Virus record (IMG/VR): IMGVR_UViG_2667527975_000009
Coordinates: 1 to 47,773 of that record
Reading direction: 5' to 3' (one strand)
From: a virus
Lineage: Duplodnaviria; Heunggongvirae; Uroviricota; Caudoviricetes
DNA length: 47,773 nt
In this document: positions 1,267 through 37,394 of the stretch, one piece after another
How positions within the stretch are numbered: the stretch's first letter is position 1
How the letters are laid out: every line of letters begins with the position of its first letter
Notes under the pieces: generated by a model
What the model saw: only the letters and a program-made list of their open reading frames with translations
What the model was told of the DNA's origin: nothing
The model's database searches: none
Position numbers and translations under genes: made by a program

Positions 1267-3441
1267 CTATCTAATCCTGAACATTACAATTGGAGCAGAG
1301 CCAGAAGATAAAGGGCCTGACCAATGGTATCTAATTCTGAAAGAAGACTCACTTGGAGTTCCGATAATTTCTATTGGACTTAAAGTTGCACCTTCTGCAG
1401 AACCAGCAGGTTGTCTAAACCCCAACACAGCAATCTGGTTTGGTGTTGGGGCATACAGAAAATTATGCTCAATATCAACCTCGTTAGATTCGCTACCTGT
1501 TGGGTTTGGCATATTCCACTCAATATAATCGTCAGTTGATTTCCCATTTATTGAGTTTCCAACTGTTGCCATAATCGTCCACGTACACGTCCTGTTAAGG
1601 GCTGCCATTCTATCACCTAAAAACCTATTATAACCATTTGCGCCTGAAGTGATTAATCTTATATTCTCTGATGCACATGTGCCAATGCTGTTAAATCCAG
1701 TGCAATCAGAAGAAAGCCCCTTCGCAGTTATATCTACGCTGTTCGCAAAACAAATTGTTGTTGAATTTACTGCATCGCGAATAAGAGCAGAACCCGAAAA
1801 CAAATTATCACACGAACCTCTTATATTATTACCACCGCCGGATAAGTAACATAAATTTCCTTTTATCCTCTTGGATGTAAAAGTAACATTGTTATTGTCA
1901 CCAGTAACAGAAAGAAGCGAGGCTTTAATAGGGGCATTGTCACTCTGTAACTGACCAATTTGGTTTATTGTAACTACATTGTTGTTGCCTGATATAGCTA
2001 TCTGATACCCATCATCATCAATTGAAGGTGAATATCTTTGTGCTTTTATATTGATGTTAAGTGTCCAGATTGTACCGTTATCCAGAAGCATGTCGCGGAG
2101 AGGAGAAATTGAATCGCCAGTGTAGTTATCTGGCATTCTTCCGCACGCCCTGGCTTCTGCGATGGCAACAACACCATGTGCCCCGTTGGTAAACCAGTAA
2201 CCACCTAAACTATTATCAACACACACATGCCTCGCATTGAATCGGTTAACACCCAGCGTCTTAAATCCATAGCCATAATACGCAGCATATACATGGATGT
2301 AATTTATATCGACATGTCCTGTATAAGGAGACTGATTATCAAGAACAATTCCATGACATGGTTCTCCGGGATAAAGAAGGCTTTGTTGGCTTGTTGCTGT
2401 TAATCTTGCGCTGTAAGGAGGAAGTCCACACAGGCCAAAAACAATATAATCCATGTTAATATCACCTGGCCCCCTGAACACAACCCCCTCTCTCCCTGAA
2501 ATTCTTCCCGTTATCCTCACTTCAGAGGCGTGTTCCTGATTATCATGAAATGATCCATACCCCTCTGAATAGAGAGCATGTTCTGCAACATTATTAATCT
2601 CAACGTCAATGTGGTACATGCTGCCGAATATTTTAATGGCAGTTCCATAGTCATTGTTAACAGTGTCGCAAGTTCTCCATGAGTTTGTATCTCTTTGCAA
2701 GTCAAGATAATTACCATCAATGGTCATATCTTTTATGCTAAATCCATATGGCGCATCAGACAGATTTTCCACAACGCCAAAGCCATGTGTTTTAAATACA
2801 TCTGTATTACTACCTTTTTTAACATACAGAAATGTTGCTCTCTTTCCAGAGCCTTTATGATGAACGCCTGTATAAAGAATGATAGGAGAATCTATTAAAT
2901 AAACACCTGGAGGGTAAAATATTTCCCCGCCACCATTATTAAAAGCAGCTAATGCTGCGGCATTAATGGCATCAGAATCTGATGTCAATCCATCTGCTTT
3001 AGCTCCATAGTATTGAGGTGTTTTCCTGATTGCATCGTAAACCGTTGAAGCGCCGAAACCGATATATTTACTACCATCTGTACCGCCAATAAGTAATTTA
3101 AACTGATCCGGGTCATACTTCAGCACATTCGGAAAATAGAACTGCTGTGTACCATACGCATCATAAACAGCCATAGAATGGCCTTGCACGGTTACGAATT
3201 TGGCAATCTGTCCGTTATATACCGGATATCCAGCAGCGTTAATGATTATTGGTTGCGAAACAGGAACGTGAGAACCGTCTTCATTCTCCACATAAACCTG
3301 AATCTGGTTTTCAGGATTTACTGGGTCAGTGTCAATTTTACCGATATAAATTTTGCCATTAGCTACGGCTTTAAAAGAGCGGGCCATAGTGAAGAGTTGC
3401 GAAGGCATGCTCACTACAACATTGGCTGTAATGTCTGTCAT
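1267..3441 (-). CDS. Tailspike (P22 gp9 / HK620-type head-binding domain with a divergent receptor-binding domain)
   Basis: 724 aa. The first ~115 aa ([46 protein letters not shown]...) match the conserved head-binding domain of P22-like tailspikes; the remainder is unrelated to the P22 or HK620 sequences I recall. The gene is visibly more AT-rich than its neighbours. Confidence 0.9.
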
Positions 3442-3499
3442 TTAATTTGCTCCAGATACAAGGAATGGCCGCAGTGATGCATTATTAACCAAAAAATAC

Positions 3500-3512
3500 G
3501 ACCACCGTGGTC
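3500..3512. promoter_or_regulatory. Mnt-operator-like palindrome
   Basis: GACCAC-C-GTGGTC, a 13-bp palindrome between the divergent mnt and tailspike starts; it resembles the P22 Omnt core as I recall it. Confidence 0.45.
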
Positions 3513-3576
3513 TTATTGAGGATGCAACCAGCAGATAATAAGATGCCGATCCACTCACAAGAGCGAGGCATCAAGA

Positions 3577-3828
3577 ATGGGAAGAGATGACCCGCAATTT
3601 AATCTGCGGCTACCTTACGAATTAAAGGAAAAACTAAAACAGCGAGCCAAATCCAATGGCCGCTCTCTTAATTCAGAATTAGTTCAGATAGTGACTGATG
3701 CTGTATCAAGGCCATCCAAAATTTCAGGCTATCGAGACGATGCGGAACGCATCGCTGATGAGCAATCAGAGCTTGTTAAGAAGATGGTGTTTGATACGCT
3801 GAAGGATTTGTACAAAAAACCCACCTGA
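3577..3828 (+). CDS. mnt: Mnt repressor (ribbon-helix-helix, Arc/MetJ family)
   Basis: 83 aa, MGRDDPQFNLRLPYELKEKLKQRAKSNGRSLNSELVQIV...DAERIADEQSELVKKMVFDTLKDLYKK; near-colinear with P22 Mnt. Confidence 0.85.
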   Translation: MGRDDPQFNLRLPYELKEKLKQRAKSNGRSLNSELVQIVTDAVSRPSKISGYRDDAERIADEQSELVKKMVFDTLKDLYKKPT

Positions 3829-3844
3829 AGGTGGGTCCTATTTA

Positions 3845-4264
3845 TTAGTCTTGCTTTGTTGATGGTATAAGTGATGCATTTGCCTCTTTTGGCTTCAAGG
3901 TATACATCCCACCATTAAATGGATCTACAGCAAGCCAACCAATTAACCCACCAAACACAAGGTTTCCACCAATATACCAACCATTAGCATTGGCTTTGAT
4001 TGGCAAGGTTACTGGCTCGTACCCATCCTTTTCCATAGTGATCTGATAGCTCTTTTTGCCAAAATAACTACCATCTGACTTGGCAAGAGTTACTCCTTGC
4101 GGGGTCTTACCTTGCGCAACAATCACGCCTGATTCGTCTTTTACCTTAAAGCTCGCACCGGAAGGATTGCTGTTCACTTGCACAAGCTGTGTTTCGTCAC
4201 CAACAATAGTTGCGCACCCAGATAACAATATAGCGCCAGCAACGACGCCGATAATCCTCTTCAT
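3845..4264 (-). CDS. Lipoprotein (moron; possible superinfection exclusion)
   Basis: 139 aa with an N-terminal signal peptide and lipobox (AILLSGC); sits between mnt and the ejection-protein genes. Confidence 0.6.
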   Translation of the reverse strand: MKRIIGVVAGAILLSGCATIVGDETQLVQVNSNPSGASFKVKDESGVIVAQGKTPQGVTLAKSDGSYFGKKSYQITMEKDGYEPVTLPIKANANGWYIGGNLVFGGLIGWLAVDPFNGGMYTLKPKEANASLIPSTKQD

Positions 4265-4398
4265 ATTACTTTCCGTTTTGTTAGAATCAGAAAGATCTTA
4301 ATAATAAAAAGTATTTTCGTGAAGATATTGTCGATTGAGTTAATAACTCATTTACACCCAACAGTGCCATGATGGCAAAGATAAGGAGAGTTAATCAT

Positions 4399-4884
4399 AT
4401 GAAAAAATCACTGTTAATTATCCCGCTTCTGCTGGCAGGGTGTGCAAAGGTTAGCGACTATCAGGCAAGTTGCGAACAACGCTATCCAAAGCTTAGCGAT
4501 ATGGCTAATTGCCTTGATGCTAGCGTGAAGAACGACTCACGCATGGCATCAGCACCAACACCTAAGTTATATGTCCTTGCTGCGAAGATGCTCGGGCAGG
4601 GTGTCGATGATGGCAAGATAAGTGACGCGCAGGCAAGACTTGAGCTTCAGAATCTTTATGTTCAATTACAAAGCCAAGAACAAGCCCAACAAATAGCGCA
4701 AAGCCAAGCATTCCAGCAGGCTTTATTGAATTATCAGGCTGTAAACACAATGCAAGCGATCGAGCAAAAAGCGAGACAGCCTGTTATAACTCAACCCTAT
4801 CCAACACGAGTTGACACTTACACAAACTGCAATTCAGGGTTTGGTAATACAGTCACATGCAACAGTAGCAGTAACATCAGATAA
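4399..4884 (+). CDS. Lipoprotein with Q-rich region (moron)
   Basis: Start taken at MKKSLLIIPLLLAGC (lipobox), with AAGGAG about 9 nt upstream; Q-rich central segment; opposite strand to the structural genes. Confidence 0.6.
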   Translation: MKKSLLIIPLLLAGCAKVSDYQASCEQRYPKLSDMANCLDASVKNDSRMASAPTPKLYVLAAKMLGQGVDDGKISDAQARLELQNLYVQLQSQEQAQQIAQSQAFQQALLNYQAVNTMQAIEQKARQPVITQPYPTRVDTYTNCNSGFGNTVTCNSSSNIR

Positions 4885-4974: not shown

Positions 4975-6972
4975 CTATTCTGACAGCGCATCAGACTTAG
5001 CACCCTGAGTCAGGGCGTTAATGACCTTTTGTGCCTGCTGCATGGCTTTCTCAAACGCTGTTGATCCGCGTGGGGTGTTTGCCATTCGGAGCATTGCATT
5101 CCTGAATGGCTCGCTCTCATAGGCGCGAGTAAGAAGTCCGTAGCTTACTGCTGCACCAGTTGTCGCCGGGTTCATTGCCGTCCCATACCCAATAATGAAC
5201 GGGATGGTTTGCTGCCCTGTGGGTGTTGTTACTGCCGCTTTTGCAGCCTGCTGCGTGGATTGCAGGTAGTTTTTCAATCCTTTCAGATAAGCGGCTTCCT
5301 GACCTTTAAATGTGATGCCAGTCTGGTTTTGCAGGATGTTAAGCTGTCGAAGGAACTGGTCAGGGGATCCGCCAGATTTCTCCATCGCCTTTCCAATGAT
5401 GCCATTGCGCATTTGCGCCCTGCCAACACGACCAACTGAGTTATACAGCGTCTTAATTTCCGATTTGTTCTTGCTGAATAGCATGTTGTTGACAACTTCC
5501 GGCGTCAGGTCGCCTTTCATGAGAACATTCTTCAGCCTGGTATTCTTTAGTTTCGCCGCTTCGTCAGCGTAGACGGCATTGGCCTGCTGATATTTACGGA
5601 GAGTATCGTTGCCAAGATTCTGACCAATGGCACCATTGATATCGTCAGTCATTGCCTTGTAAACGCGCTGAATAGCAGCATCGGAACGGTTTGGTAACAC
5701 TGGTCGCTCACCCTTCACGTCCATTCTGAACTGGCTGCGCAGGTCGCTTAATTGCTTCAAATCCAGATTTACCGGACCATCAGGGCCAGCATTGCGAACA
5801 AGCTCATCACGATATGACTGAAGTTTTGAAATTGTCTCGTTATCAGCTACCTTACCAAGCTTCTGCAGATTAGATATCTCAGTATCAATCTGCTGAATTG
5901 CTCGCGCAGGCTGGATATTGACTCCCGCCATTGCATTCTGAACCTGCTCAAGACGGTTCCCTGCGGCACGACGAATTCCTGATGTTTTCGCTTTAAGGCT
6001 GTCAATAACAACCGCTGGATCATACTCACCGAATTTATCGGCAAATCTCTGCACCAACTGGCTTCTCGCTTCCTGTTGCGTTGCTCTCATTCCGCTTGTG
6101 CCAGCCAGAGGGATATTTTCTGCTGTAGTCTGCGCCATTTTTCCGACGCGGGAAGTGGGTTGTAACAGGTCTGTGGTGTGCAGAGGAACTCCTTCACGCT
6201 CTGCAAATCTGATAGCCTGCTGCGCTTCTGGCGCAATAGCACCACTAACGCCACGATAAGCAGCACCTAATCCACGTCCAGCAGCGTTAATAGCGCCGCC
6301 TGCCAGAACGCCAACACCTAAATCGGTGGCGAGGGCTTCCGCATCATCTTTCGCACTATTTGCAGCAAGTGACCCGACTGCGTTTTCAGCGAGAAGGCGA
6401 GTTGCACCCTGAGCGATTCTACCAGCTAGTGTTGGTGCCTGTGCCGCCGCTCTCTCAACGCCAGCAGGAGTGAGGTAAGGCAATGCTTCAGCAAATACCC
6501 TTCCCTCTGTCGTTTGTGGAGTCAGCGCGCCTTGCTGAAGGCCAAAGTCCTGCTCTAATCCCTGCGTTGTTACTCGTGGCGCTGGTTGATATGTACCATC
6601 GCCAATGCCGAGTTTACCGCCAGCCCAAGCCGCCGCGCTTGTTACAGCATCGGCAACTGATGCGGGTATGTTTGCCACGTTCACGCCAGCCTGCACCAGT
6701 CCGCGACCAGTCTCTTTTACTGCTTCGCCAAGATCAGACATAAATCCACTTTGCTGTGGTTGTTGCTGTGCTACTGGTTGCTGTGTCTCCACTTGCTGCG
6801 CAGATGGCAATGGATAGGCAGCATAGAAAGCTTGCTTGGCCTGCTCTGCATTTTCTCCGGCTTGCGGGGCAACGACTTCATTGAAGTATTGCTCCTGAGC
6901 CTGCGCTTTTTGTTCTGGTGCTAACGCCTGATACTGTGGAGAGGCGATAACATCTTTCCATGCTTTAGCCAT
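4975..6972 (-). CDS. Ejection (internal virion) protein, P22 gp16-like
   Basis: 665 aa, last gene in the gp7-gp20-gp16 order; Ala/Gly/Gln-rich composition. Confidence 0.75.
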   Translation of the reverse strand: MAKAWKDVIASPQYQALAPEQKAQAQEQYFNEVVAPQAGENAEQAKQAFYAAYPLPSAQQVETQQPVAQQQPQQSGFMSDLGEAVKETGRGLVQAGVNVANIPASVADAVTSAAAWAGGKLGIGDGTYQPAPRVTTQGLEQDFGLQQGALTPQTTEGRVFAEALPYLTPAGVERAAAQAPTLAGRIAQGATRLLAENAVGSLAANSAKDDAEALATDLGVGVLAGGAINAAGRGLGAAYRGVSGAIAPEAQQAIRFAEREGVPLHTTDLLQPTSRVGKMAQTTAENIPLAGTSGMRATQQEARSQLVQRFADKFGEYDPAVVIDSLKAKTSGIRRAAGNRLEQVQNAMAGVNIQPARAIQQIDTEISNLQKLGKVADNETISKLQSYRDELVRNAGPDGPVNLDLKQLSDLRSQFRMDVKGERPVLPNRSDAAIQRVYKAMTDDINGAIGQNLGNDTLRKYQQANAVYADEAAKLKNTRLKNVLMKGDLTPEVVNNMLFSKNKSEIKTLYNSVGRVGRAQMRNGIIGKAMEKSGGSPDQFLRQLNILQNQTGITFKGQEAAYLKGLKNYLQSTQQAAKAAVTTPTGQQTIPFIIGYGTAMNPATTGAAVSYGLLTRAYESEPFRNAMLRMANTPRGSTAFEKAMQQAQKVINALTQGAKSDALSE

Positions 6973-10380: not shown

Positions 10381-11798
10381 TACTCAATCCTTATCTGGCA
10401 GCCAGACAGAGTGACAGGTGACTTCGTGATAACGCGCAATTTGAAGCCAACATTTTTCCTGATGCGCCCGACTCGCTTCCACAAAACGCGTTTGTCGTAA
10501 ACGAACGGTTCATTCTGCTCAATCATCTGCTCACGTCCGTAATTGATGCCGTCAGTGGTTGCAGAGAGAAAAAGGCGGTCGGCGTACTGCGCAACGCCAG
10601 TTGACGATTCAACCTCAAAGTCAAACACCCTGGCGTTATCCGCTTTGAACAACGGAGTAAACAGCAGGTGTTCCTGTTGCTTGTCGTACTGGCTGCTAAT
10701 GTCGAACTGCAATTTCCCGGTCACGGATTCCAGCTTATCTCCGCACGTTATCTGATTGCCTTCGTAAATGAAGTCGATAGCGCGGTACACATCGTCATCC
10801 AGGCCTGTTTTCAGTACACACCATTGCGGACCATTGGCGCTTGAAGATGCGTCGTACACCAGTACATGGCGCGGAAGATGGATAATCAGCAACTCATGCG
10901 CATCAAATCGCAGCGATTCCATTACACCATCAGCCAGTTCATCAGCAGTGTAGGAGCGGAGAATTTTCTCAATGCTCGCGCTGGCGATTGGTGATACCTG
11001 ACCGGAGCCGATGATGTATACAGACGGCGCACCTGTTGCCGGATTGCTGATAAACGCATAGGAATCAGCAAACGGCGTTTTGCAGTAAGTTCCGGCAATG
11101 CCTTTCTGCACCATTAACGATGGCTGGGCGACATACAAAGCAGCACCAACGGTGGTTGCCCCAGTCAGGGAAAAATATTCAATCGTCGATGAACCAAAGC
11201 AGACGATGAAGTCTCGCCATGTTCCGATACCGATGATGCCGTCCGGCTGAGACTCGGCACGATATTGTGCGCTGTAACGGTCAGGATGCGATTCATCTTC
11301 AAGGTCAGTGATAAACCATGAATCAGTGCCGTCTTTTGACCACGCATAACGCCCACGTAAGCGCGTAATGTCGCGGACTGAGCCTAACTCATACTGAGTG
11401 AATCCACTGTCTGTAGGCCAGTTTGAGACGGTTTTAACCGTGCCATCATAGCGATACTCGACCAGTTGACCATTAACGCCTACAGCCTGAGATGTCCGAC
11501 CATGCGCCATTGATACGCGACCACTTCCGGCAACATCACCGACTTCACTTTCTCCTTTGTACAGCTTGCCACCACACACGCGATAAACAGCACTCTGCGC
11601 CATGTTGTACTCGACGCCGCGCGATACGCCGTTCACATCAGAACGTTTGGCAATGCCCGGGAATGAGCGAAGATATCCGCTGCTGTTCAGGATTTCTTTG
11701 GGTGTAGCCAGCATATTCACTGGCAGATAGTCGATATAGTCGGCGTTTCGGAAGTCTTTTCCGACACCTTTCATAAGCGGAAGTTGCTGAATCGGCAT
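10380..11798 (-). CDS. Tail hub protein, P22 gp10-like
   Basis: 472 aa, the same length as P22 gp10, and in the expected position. Confidence 0.8.
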
Positions 11799-19779: not shown

Positions 19780-20037
19780 CTACTTCGCTTTTGCTTCCGC
19801 TCGCTTACGCCGGCGCTCTTCTTTCCTCTCGGCTTTTGCCATGTCCATGAATGCCTGCATGATCGAGTTCCGCATCATGTAGCTAACAAAGTGATGATTG
19901 ACACAGCCGTTGAGGCGCAGCTGCTCGCCAAACTCATCCACCGAGGCCAATGCTTCCATCATGCCCTTCTCGCCTTTCATGAACTCTGAGAAGTCGCGCC
20001 CCGCTCTGGAGGCGCATTCAATGACACGATCACTCAT
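19780..20037 (-). CDS. Hypothetical basic protein (coupled to KilA-N gene)
   Basis: 85 aa with a K/R/E-rich C-terminus; its start overlaps the KilA-N stop by 4 nt (ATGA). Confidence 0.5.
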   Translation of the reverse strand: MSDRVIECASRAGRDFSEFMKGEKGMMEALASVDEFGEQLRLNGCVNHHFVSYMMRNSIMQAFMDMAKAERKEERRRKRAEAKAK

Positions 20038-20531
20038 CCCGGAAGCCCGGGGATCGTAATCTGCAGCTGGTTAGCCAGGGAGTTAATCTCAGCGACCAAC
20101 ACTGGCTTCGTATAGCGCCATGCCGCCAGTCCTTGTCCGCAGAAGCTCGCCATGTCTTTCTTCTGGTCAAACTCATGACATTTCATGTTGAGCTGCGCAC
20201 TTAAGCTGTTGCGATGCTGAAGTTCTCCGGTGAAGTAGTCATCGAGGACTTTATAGGCCGCGTACTTGAACCCGGGGTTTAACCAAGCCGCATAATCGTA
20301 AGCAACAAACTTCCCGCCATATGTTCCACCGTGTACACCGCGCTCAGTAAAAACCACAGATTCGTGGTTTTTCTCCAGCTCGGCTAAGAACTCTTTGGTC
20401 TGCTTGTTTCGCAGGTAGTGGTACGGAGATTCAGATTCACTTTTACCACTGGCTTTCCACATATCAGTGAGGCAGATCATGCCATCTTCACCGATACGAA
20501 TTGGTTGATTGAAGAGGGTTAATGATTTCAT
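20034..20531 (-). CDS. KilA-N domain protein
   Basis: 165 aa with a KilA-N-like N-terminus (IRIGEDGMICLTDMWKASGK...). Confidence 0.7.
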   Translation of the reverse strand: MKSLTLFNQPIRIGEDGMICLTDMWKASGKSESESPYHYLRNKQTKEFLAELEKNHESVVFTERGVHGGTYGGKFVAYDYAAWLNPGFKYAAYKVLDDYFTGELQHRNSLSAQLNMKCHEFDQKKDMASFCGQGLAAWRYTKPVLVAEINSLANQLQITIPGLPG

Positions 20532-37193: not shown

Positions 37194-37394
37194 ATGCAAC
37201 ACGAACTACAGCCTGATTCACTGGTTGATTTGAAATTCATCATGGCCGATACTGGCTTCGGTAAAACCTTCATCTATGACCGGATTAAGTCCGGCGACCT
37301 GCCAAAAGCCAAAGTTATCCACGGGCGAGCAAGATGGTTATATCGTGACCATTGTGAATTCAAAAATAAGCTCTTAAGCCGCGCCAATGGGTAA
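37194..37394 (+). CDS. AlpA/Vis-like excisionase or regulator (MerR-like HTH)
   Basis: 66 aa; the pattern ...IMADTGFGKTFIYDRIKSGDLPKAKVIHGRARWLYRDHCEF... fits AlpA-family proteins. Confidence 0.7.
   Translation: MQHELQPDSLVDLKFIMADTGFGKTFIYDRIKSGDLPKAKVIHGRARWLYRDHCEFKNKLLSRANG

Follow-up and report, generated by a model that had tools for sequence, protein, structure and literature searches.

Organization of the mnt-tailspike locus

The 47,773-nt sequence of the IMG/VR virus record IMGVR_UViG_2667527975_000009 (positions 1 to 47,773, the whole of which is here called the window) contains a gene for a homologue of Mnt, a repressor that in phage P22 belongs to the immI region together with arc and ant. 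The mnt gene (83 amino acids, aa) lies at 3577-3828 on the + strand, is preceded by the ribosome-binding site (RBS) GAGG at 3565-3568, and encodes a ribbon-helix-helix (RHH) domain followed by a C-terminal tetramerisation helix. It is divergent from the tailspike gene, an open reading frame (ORF) of 724 aa at 1267-3441 on the - strand, and the two are separated by a spacer of 135 bp (3442-3576). Within the spacer, GACCACCGTGGTC at 3500-3512 forms the palindrome GACCAC-C-GTGGTC, the centre of which (3506) and the tailspike ATG (3441) are 65 bp apart. An orphan mnt divergent from the tailspike and a palindrome of this sequence about 65 bp upstream of the tailspike start had both been described in the initial annotation of the window, and both descriptions are borne out.

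The palindrome is the core of a 17-bp sequence, ACGACCACCGTGGTCTT (3498-3514), that is homologous to the mnt operator and stands in the register of P22 Omnt, AGGTCCACGGTGGACCT; between this operator and the tailspike ATG there are only 57 bp. On its other side, a single base pair lies between the operator and the -35 hexamer TTGAGG (3516-3521) of a putative Pmnt promoter (3516-3544, + strand) with a 17-bp spacer and the -10 hexamer TAAGAT (3539-3544), and the spacing between operator and promoter is as in P22. Facing the tailspike on the - strand (3521-3549), the equivalent of the P22 promoter Pant is degenerate, consisting of TCGGCA (3549-3544), 17 bp, and TGCATC (3526-3521). A bidirectional intrinsic terminator at 3819-3836 overlaps the final codons of mnt. 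The locus as a whole is placed between a gene-16 homologue (4975-6972, - strand) and the tailspike gene, inside the late operon, which is the slot of immI in P22.

Neither arc nor ant is present, as had been stated for the locus beforehand. In tblastn searches over the 47.8-kb window, P22 Arc has mnt itself as its sole match and P22 Ant finds nothing better than E = 0.76; in the alignment with P22 immI, the sar-bearing P22 segment has no counterpart in the window. The window is therefore without an arc downstream of the Pant position and without ant and sar. Past the operator, the window has just "gtatt" in common with P22 until the two sequences become homologous again ~35 nt upstream of the tailspike ATG, and because of this gap ~1.3 kb with arc, sar, ant and the ant terminator can be regarded as cleanly absent. 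With the slot of P22 immI occupied, and with mnt, Pmnt and operator in P22 geometry, the suggestion of an immI remnant made in the initial annotation stands. The locus is very probably a P22-type immI region ("ant moron") reduced to Pmnt, the 17-bp dyad operator, mnt and the terminator, with arc, sar, ant and a functional Pant lost.

The initial annotation had also proposed a search of related phages for leftovers of arc and ant, and none are found in the spacer or in related loci; spacers of ~425 bp, which occur in some of the latter, represent swaps of the tailspike module. In these longer spacers (~420-430 bp in L029, L041, L051-L055, L060, L064 and L065) the first four codons of the old tailspike, ATGACAGATATT, precede a ~280-bp AT-rich insert, after which comes a new, unrelated tailspike start, an arrangement that looks like the scar of a tailspike-module replacement just inside the old gene.

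The mnt-only layout is a known one: it has appeared in print, GenBank and RefSeq annotate it, and it is common. The same mnt-tailspike junction is found in vB_EcoP-720R6 and the E. coli prophage Gally (95% identity), in ST160, SE1 and several ST-xx phages (81%), and in ~104 of 5,426 complete E. coli genomes, and a more divergent mnt allele is present in phages L, ST64T, ST104, SPN9CC and others. The mnt-only "ant morons" of ST64T, ST104 and phage L have been treated by Villafane 2008 and Zaworski 2020 (PMC2629481, PMC8022706). The locus of the window has the features of this group, namely an mnt beside and divergent from the tailspike, no arc or ant, a AAGACCAC-N-GTGGTCTT operator and an Mnt with Gln6. 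What the orphan mnt is for was left open in print, as "another function or a remnant" (Zaworski 2020, PMC8022706), and readings as a remnant and as a control of the tailspike had both been raised earlier by Zaworski 2020, for phage L, and by Villafane 2008. What is new here is modest, and consists of the Gln6/His6 dichotomy of operator classes, the loss of Pant that accompanies it, and the strength of purifying selection on the orphan mnt.

The Mnt protein and selection on its gene

The mnt product is 74.7% identical to P22 Mnt over residues 1-83 without gaps. It matches the Pfam families Arc (PF03869, 1.1e-21, residues 3-50) and Repressor_Mnt (PF11423, 1.4e-18, residues 53-80), as well as the PDB structures 1MNT (7e-34, residues 3-77) and 1QEY (3e-12, with 28 of 31 residues identical). 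The RHH domain, the C-terminal tetramerisation helix and the full-length collinearity with P22 Mnt place it in the Mnt family. The beta-strand of the window protein, PQFNLR, has Gln6 where P22 Mnt has His6; in place of the P22 combination of His6 with a GTGGACC half-site the window has Gln6 with GTGGTCT, a difference that bears on specificity and not on family. The RefSeq entry for the protein, WP_021560234.1, is named "Arc family DNA-binding protein". Chain G of PDB 9pio, a recent structure under that same name, matches the Mnt RHH domain (E = 2.5e-6). In PHROG 795, PHROG 2685 and many RefSeq phage records (NC_002371, NC_014900, NC_011802 and others) Mnt is mislabelled "partition protein ATPase", a propagated annotation error.

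Eighty IMG/VR loci with close Mnt relatives were fetched, and the window and two GenBank phage loci were added to the counts. The N-terminus of the window type, MGRDDPQFNLR, occurs in 66 loci, and in all 66 mnt adjoins a tailspike gene and neither arc nor ant is present. At every locus with the P22-type N-terminus, MARDDPHFNFR, arc and ant are present.

Purifying selection on the orphan mnt is strong. When orphan alleles from E. coli and Salmonella are compared, synonymous divergence (dS) is ~0.55 and nonsynonymous divergence (dN) ~0.04-0.05, giving dN/dS of 0.07-0.10. The reading frame is intact at 64 of the 66 window-type loci and has an in-frame stop at two (L064 and L065, each with mnt at 4001-4249). 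In L064 an operator arm is also mutated (GTGATC), an indication that loss of function is followed by decay of gene and site alike. Because selection on the gene is this strong, "remnant" is not the same as "dead" for mnt, and the cassette appears functional.

Conservation of the operator

A perfect palindrome of the 6-1-6 form is by itself unremarkable, the window having 20 of them against ~11.7 expected; its meaning rests on homology and conservation. On the tailspike-sense strand, the palindrome of the window (AAGACCACGGTGGTCGT) falls exactly on the annotated mnt operator of P22 (AGGTCCACGGTGGACCT). Conservation was computed over 31 distinct in-register upstream sequences. Among these, the mean minor-allele count per column is 0.67 at the 12 core arm positions, where the variants are rare singletons, 22 at the central base, which is freely G, C, A or T, and 3.06 over the rest. 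Generally, the operator arms, the Pmnt hexamers and the RBS are conserved, and the operator centre and the distal flank, the latter highly variable, are free to vary. Because the arms are near-invariant, the centre degenerate and the flank variable, the operator has the signature of a dyad protein-binding site. Mnt is predicted to bind at 3498-3514. A blind scan of IMG/VR for AAGACCACNGTGGTCTT returned 39 sites, 36 of which adjoin an mnt homologue. At one locus (L122, ~10730-10860) the Mnt operator and adjacent sequence are tandemly duplicated upstream of an L-type mnt.

Another reading of the palindrome would make it not a protein site but a structure in RNA of the tailspike sense, a hairpin or an intrinsic terminator. 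On the - strand a consensus scan did pick out GACCACGGTGGTC with GTATTTTTTG after it as resembling a terminator, the palindrome being flagged because a T-run comes after it. The T-run, however, is missing from Salmonella and further lineages in which the palindrome is perfectly preserved, and the palindrome is located where P22 has its Mnt operator and is found together with mnt homologues. Its hairpin is weak (-6.9 kcal/mol, z = -0.68), with 49 of 200 shuffled sequences at least as stable, and the combination of a stable GC-rich hairpin and a conserved U-run that marks a Rho-independent terminator is lacking. A terminator at this site on the tailspike strand was rejected, and the hairpin reading is extremely improbable.

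Promoters and terminator

Scored with a position weight matrix (PWM) for sigma-70 promoters, Pmnt reaches 10.0, which is in the top 7e-5 of window positions; P22 Pmnt (TTGAGA-17-TATCAT), in the same register, reaches 12.7. The promoter is conserved as TTGTGG-17-TATGAT in the Salmonella orphans. The Pant equivalent of the window (TCGGCA-17-TGCATC) scores -4.2, against 16.7 for P22 Pant (TTGACA-17-TATATT). A score of 14.2 is obtained for the Pant (TTGACA-17-TATCTT), in register, of L117, a contig with a full immI of the Gln6 class. The final T of the Pant -10 is lost in all orphan lineages examined. On sequence prediction, the window does not have the strong Pant that in immI overlaps Pmnt and is covered by the Mnt operator, and no tailspike-facing sigma-70-like promoter rises above background there, the best one having a score of 3.7 (top 0.4% of window positions).

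The terminator at 3819-3836 folds with -12.9 kcal/mol on the + strand and -14.5 kcal/mol on the - strand (z of about -2.3 and -2.5, respectively), has a T-run on both strands, and ends both the mnt transcript (+) and the transcript of the neighbouring gene at 3845-4264 (-). Since mnt ends in this strong bidirectional terminator it is monocistronic and set apart from the convergent moron gene, and since the terminator lies upstream of the tailspike, transcripts bound for the tailspike must read through it. In P22, the antiterminated late transcript reads through a terminator into gene 9 (Villafane 2008).

P22 and most of its relatives have an imperfect inverted repeat (e.g. GCCGTAGC-CAC-GCTGCGGC) just upstream of the tailspike RBS, and P22 has it twice. 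When the window (~3455-3480) is compared with L002 (4143-4200) and L001 (5040-5175), it is seen to be without an 11-bp piece (CTGTGGCAATG in Gally-type phages), and the left arm of the repeat is thereby lost. The inverted repeat may be an RNA structure affecting translation or processing of the tailspike.

A proposed second class of Mnt operator specificity

Residue 6 of Mnt and the sequence of the operator vary together. Among distinct protein-upstream combinations, Gln6 is found with GACCAC/GTGGTC in 51 of 54, the other three having single-base variants, and His6 with GTCCAC/GTGGAC in five of seven, the other two having a replaced upstream region. No cross-combination of residue and operator class occurs among all distinct combinations. 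The mnt homologues beside AAGACCACNGTGGTCTT sites are all DPQFNLR, down to 47-57% identity with the window protein, and a relaxed scan of IMG/VR for AGACCACNGTGGTCT gives at least 59 RHH-adjacent sites, all with Gln6 and, among the matches listed, none with His6. Position 6 was reportedly named the "master residue" of Mnt specificity by Silbaq et al. in 2002. The optimal half-site of P22 Mnt was measured as GTGGACC (Fields et al. 1997, as quoted in PMC2726951), and, according to a single sentence in PMC1184061, the preference for two neighbouring bases of the operator can be altered by one residue of Mnt.

Judged from these sequence pairings, Gln6/GTGGTCT would be a natural specificity class distinct from that of P22, and an Mnt of the window class should then not cross-react with P22-type immI. 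Phage L, which carries the Gln6-type operator class, has no functional immI against P22 (PMC8022706), a result of classical genetics that fits; the two operator classes differ.

Complete modules of the Gln6 class, with mnt, the AAGACCAC-N-GTGGTCTT operator, arc and ant, are found on four viral contigs (L117/L223, L128, L170 and L179), at least one of them in an ES18/SPN3UB-like siphovirus backbone; IMG/VR contig 2795385501_000005 is an example of Pant with this operator together with arc and ant. In L117, the control region of which was read, the operator is beside a strong Pant. As for other candidates, the full immI modules of E. coli are ruled out as the cognate, being either P22-class with His6/GGTCCAC (L126) or N7-class with another operator (L127, L125), and the RHH/ant module of SPN3UB is ruled out as being of another type.

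Expression of the orphan cassette in Gally

Additional information can be garnered from the strand-specific RNA-seq study of Gally (PMC9928086). RNA of mnt is detectable in the lysogens; in log2 units, it goes from ~3.7 (background) in overnight lysogeny broth (LB) cultures to ~9 in macrophages, reported as 40-fold up, and mnt is the prophage regulator most strongly induced in macrophages. Tailspike RNA goes from ~3.9 in overnight LB to 6.7-7.8 in macrophages, and the neighbouring moron genes from ~5-6 to 8.5-11. The injection-protein gene GALLYPH_12, just upstream of the moron, has values of 3.6-3.9 in LB and 4.0-4.1 in macrophages. The highest-expressed genes at this prophage end are GALLYPH_14 and GALLYPH_13, the homologues of the window genes at 3845-4264 and 4369-4884, and the ratio of Gally (LF82 1034308-1036707) tailspike RNA to the upstream moron transcript moves from ~5% at 1 h to ~30% at 6 h in macrophages (PMC9928086 S1 Table). 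Because tailspike RNA rises while the upstream late genes stay at background, some late-independent transcription enters the Gally tailspike. The rise of mnt and tailspike RNA is parallel, and thus not what a repressor-target pair predicts. A Gally delta-mnt lysogen (strain MAC2774) is viable and survives in macrophages like the wild type (PMC9928086); its viability is as expected where no ant is present to be derepressed.

Possible functions of the orphan mnt

The overall explanation that we prefer, to which about an even chance may be given, is that the locus is an immI-derived cassette, self-regulated, that acts in trans on cognate antirepressor promoters. In such a scheme Mnt would be made from Pmnt in the lysogen, and the Mnt tetramer would use its Gln6 beta-ribbon to bind AAGACCAC-N-GTGGTCTT, immediately before the mnt -35, so that the local operator may serve mnt autoregulation. 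The tailspike would be without an Mnt-controlled promoter and would be served by antiterminated late transcription through 3819-3836. The cassette would be retained to silence the cognate Pant-ant of superinfecting or co-resident phages, and the prophage would in this way be guarded from antirepressor-driven induction. That selection keeps the cassette as a trans-acting repressor of same-class Pant-ant is a plausible proposal that falls somewhat short of an even chance. A broader proposal, which we offer as tentative and as rather unlikely, is that the Gln6 class constitutes a second natural immI specificity, and that the orphans are either stand-alone "anti-antirepressor" immunity genes against same-class ant or condition-induced regulators with a new target, as the 40-fold rise in Gally could indicate.

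Several points weigh against the trans-acting cassette and the specificity class on which it draws. Full Gln6-class modules are rare in the sample (four contigs against ~55 orphans), and no module of the L117 type is found in the 5,426 complete E. coli genomes above ~65% nucleotide identity. RHH proteins with DPQFN(L/V)R in phage N7, in E. coli E2865 and at loci L225-L231 have quite different operators, so Gln6 alone does not set specificity; within the Mnt family proper, residue 6 and operator are correlated, which does not prove that one determines the other. The hexamer frequencies of the sigma-70 PWM are approximate, and a weak or non-sigma-70 tailspike promoter could escape it. Simple terminator read-through does not obviously explain the change in the ratio of tailspike to moron RNA in Gally, and the late-independent tailspike RNA is not fully assignable to read-through from the moron genes. 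The Gally delta-mnt strain had no phenotype in one reported assay, that of macrophage survival.

An alternative is a regulation of the tailspike by Mnt, either by repression of a residual promoter overlapping the operator or as a roadblock to transcripts from the late operon or the upstream moron gene. The sole transcriptional path into the tailspike gene does run across the operator, 65 bp before the ATG, Villafane 2008 speculated that Mnt and Arc may influence read-through from Plate into gene 9, and Gally tailspike RNA is up 6- to 20-fold in macrophages with the upstream late genes at background. The initial annotation, likewise, had suggested that Mnt may have been re-wired to control the tailspike, but the sequence of the window lends this no support. 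There is no credible sigma-70 promoter toward the tailspike (best 3.7, with the Pant equivalent at -4.2), a terminator lies upstream, the sequence between operator and tailspike RBS is unconserved between the E. coli and Salmonella orphans, and in Gally the RNAs of mnt and tailspike increase together. The mnt-operator cassette is, moreover, linked to many unrelated tailspike receptor domains, which argues against a tailspike-specific function. Regulation of the tailspike is on the whole unlikely. Less likely by a little is retention of Mnt for some other target, such as a host or mobile-element gene, perhaps in a condition-specific programme such as intramacrophage growth. Strong purifying selection in spite of the loss of arc and ant would agree with another target, as would the 40-fold induction of Gally mnt in macrophages. 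However, a search of the 47.8-kb window for operator-like sites with up to three mismatches gives two matches against 1.0 expected, only one of them beyond the operator and at chance level; at least 74 non-Mnt AGACCACNGTGGTCT sites in IMG/VR are, as listed, all inside ORFs of at least 80 codons on unrelated contigs; and delta-mnt left macrophage survival unchanged.

A functionless, decaying immI leftover would be in keeping with the disappearance of the classical targets Pant, arc and ant, with the viable Gally delta-mnt lysogen of no reported phenotype, and with the in-frame stops of L064 and L065 and the mutated operator arm of L064. It is nevertheless difficult to reconcile with dN/dS of 0.07-0.10 at dS ~0.55, with 64 of 66 loci intact, with operator arms, Pmnt hexamers and RBS conserved amid free variation, and with persistence of the cassette in E. 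coli and Salmonella phages that have different tailspikes, and we regard it as improbable.

The orphan mnt offers a concrete handle on the published question of function or remnant. If the trans-acting guard against antirepressor-mediated induction is true, it would be a simple and widespread type of prophage-against-phage immunity, and the two operator classes would show a repressor and its operator diverging together in nature, within the well-studied Arc/Mnt system.

Neighbouring genes and the host prophage

The window is a stretch of E. coli chromosome with a prophage of the Sf6/HK620-like type (Lederbergvirus) at the tRNA-Arg gene argW, and a 601-bp query across the mnt locus is 100% identical to E. 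coli strains CAVp367 and OZ039045. The integrase gene intS (1-1158, + strand) marks one prophage end. A gap of 108 bp, free of the O-antigen modification genes gtr and oac, separates it from the end of the tailspike gene. A TorI-like excisionase (~37194-37394) is at the prophage end opposite intS, as in the KplE1/HK620-type arrangement at argW.

The tailspike has a P22-type head-binding N-terminal part (PF09008, 3.9e-67) that is 75% identical to P22 gp9 over residues 1-116, and a pectate-lyase-like receptor domain (PF12708, 9.1e-11). Only the first ~175 nt of the gene match most sequenced phages. Residues ~120-724 (window 1267-3090), apart from their pectate-lyase-like PF12708 match, are unmatched among the phage records listed, and the receptor part probably has a different O-antigen specificity.

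Two small moron genes, divergent from each other, lie between mnt and the gene-16 homologue. The one at 3845-4264 (- strand; PHROG 6823) matches gene 15 of epsilon34, and the one at 4369-4884 (+ strand) belongs to PHROG 6067; both have a lipoprotein-like signal sequence (...LLSGC... and ...LLAGC... for the pair), and both families are without known function. Elsewhere, a KilA-N/Rha-like regulator gene at 20034-20531 (- strand; PHROG 129, PHROG 518) is situated between the lysis and terminase genes and has a possible alternative antirepressor-type function. No Mnt operator is present upstream of it, the only further match in the window being one of chance level, with three mismatches, within coding sequence.

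Comparison with known systems

P22 Arc shares with the window Mnt the RHH fold family PF03869 and an identical beta-strand, PQFNLR, but it is a 53-aa protein that acts as a dimer of dimers, lacks the C-terminal tetramerisation helix of Mnt, and has an operator of its own, lying between the two hexamers (-35 and -10) of Pant. The two proteins are only 42% identical, and the window protein has the Mnt C-terminal domain.

The closest parallel in organization is P22 immI itself. Both loci fill the slot between homologues of gene 16 and gene 9, both have a divergent mnt of 83 aa (75% identical), and both have a 17-bp dyad operator 1 bp upstream of the Pmnt -35, with the 17-bp-spaced Pmnt in register. 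Unlike P22 immI, the window has no arc, sar, ant or ant terminator, and its Pant hexamers are degenerate. The half-site is GTGGTCT in the window and GTGGACC in P22, and Mnt has Gln6, Leu9 and Leu11 in the window where P22 has His6, Phe9 and Met11. The carriers also differ, the mnt locus of the window residing in an Sf6-like E. coli prophage and P22 being a Salmonella phage.

The mnt-only phages L, ST64T, ST104, ST160 and SE1 resemble the window in that mnt adjoins and is divergent from gene 9 with no arc or ant, and in having the AAGACCAC-N-GTGGTCTT operator, the Gln6 N-terminus MGRDDPQFNLRLPYELK and the same Pmnt layout. The ST160/SE1 allele of Mnt is 90-92% identical to that of the window, whereas the L/ST64T protein reaches only 67% identity and differs in its C-terminal helix. 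The flanking moron genes are orf59a/orf62 in the Salmonella mnt-only phages and epsilon34 gene-15-like in the window, and the window further differs from them by a short T-rich stretch after the operator and by an 11-bp deletion upstream of the tailspike RBS.

Nearest of all are Gally of E. coli LF82 (Misson et al. 2023, PMC9928086) and vB_EcoP-720R6, with 94.9% nucleotide identity from the tailspike start to downstream of mnt. Gally has the same gene order as the window, including the two moron genes, and its mnt is annotated "Mnt repressor". The spacer is 146 bp in Gally and vB_EcoP-720R6 compared with 135 bp in the window, and the differences otherwise reside in the outer operator flank (GAGACCAC against ACGACCAC) and in the receptor domain of the tailspike.

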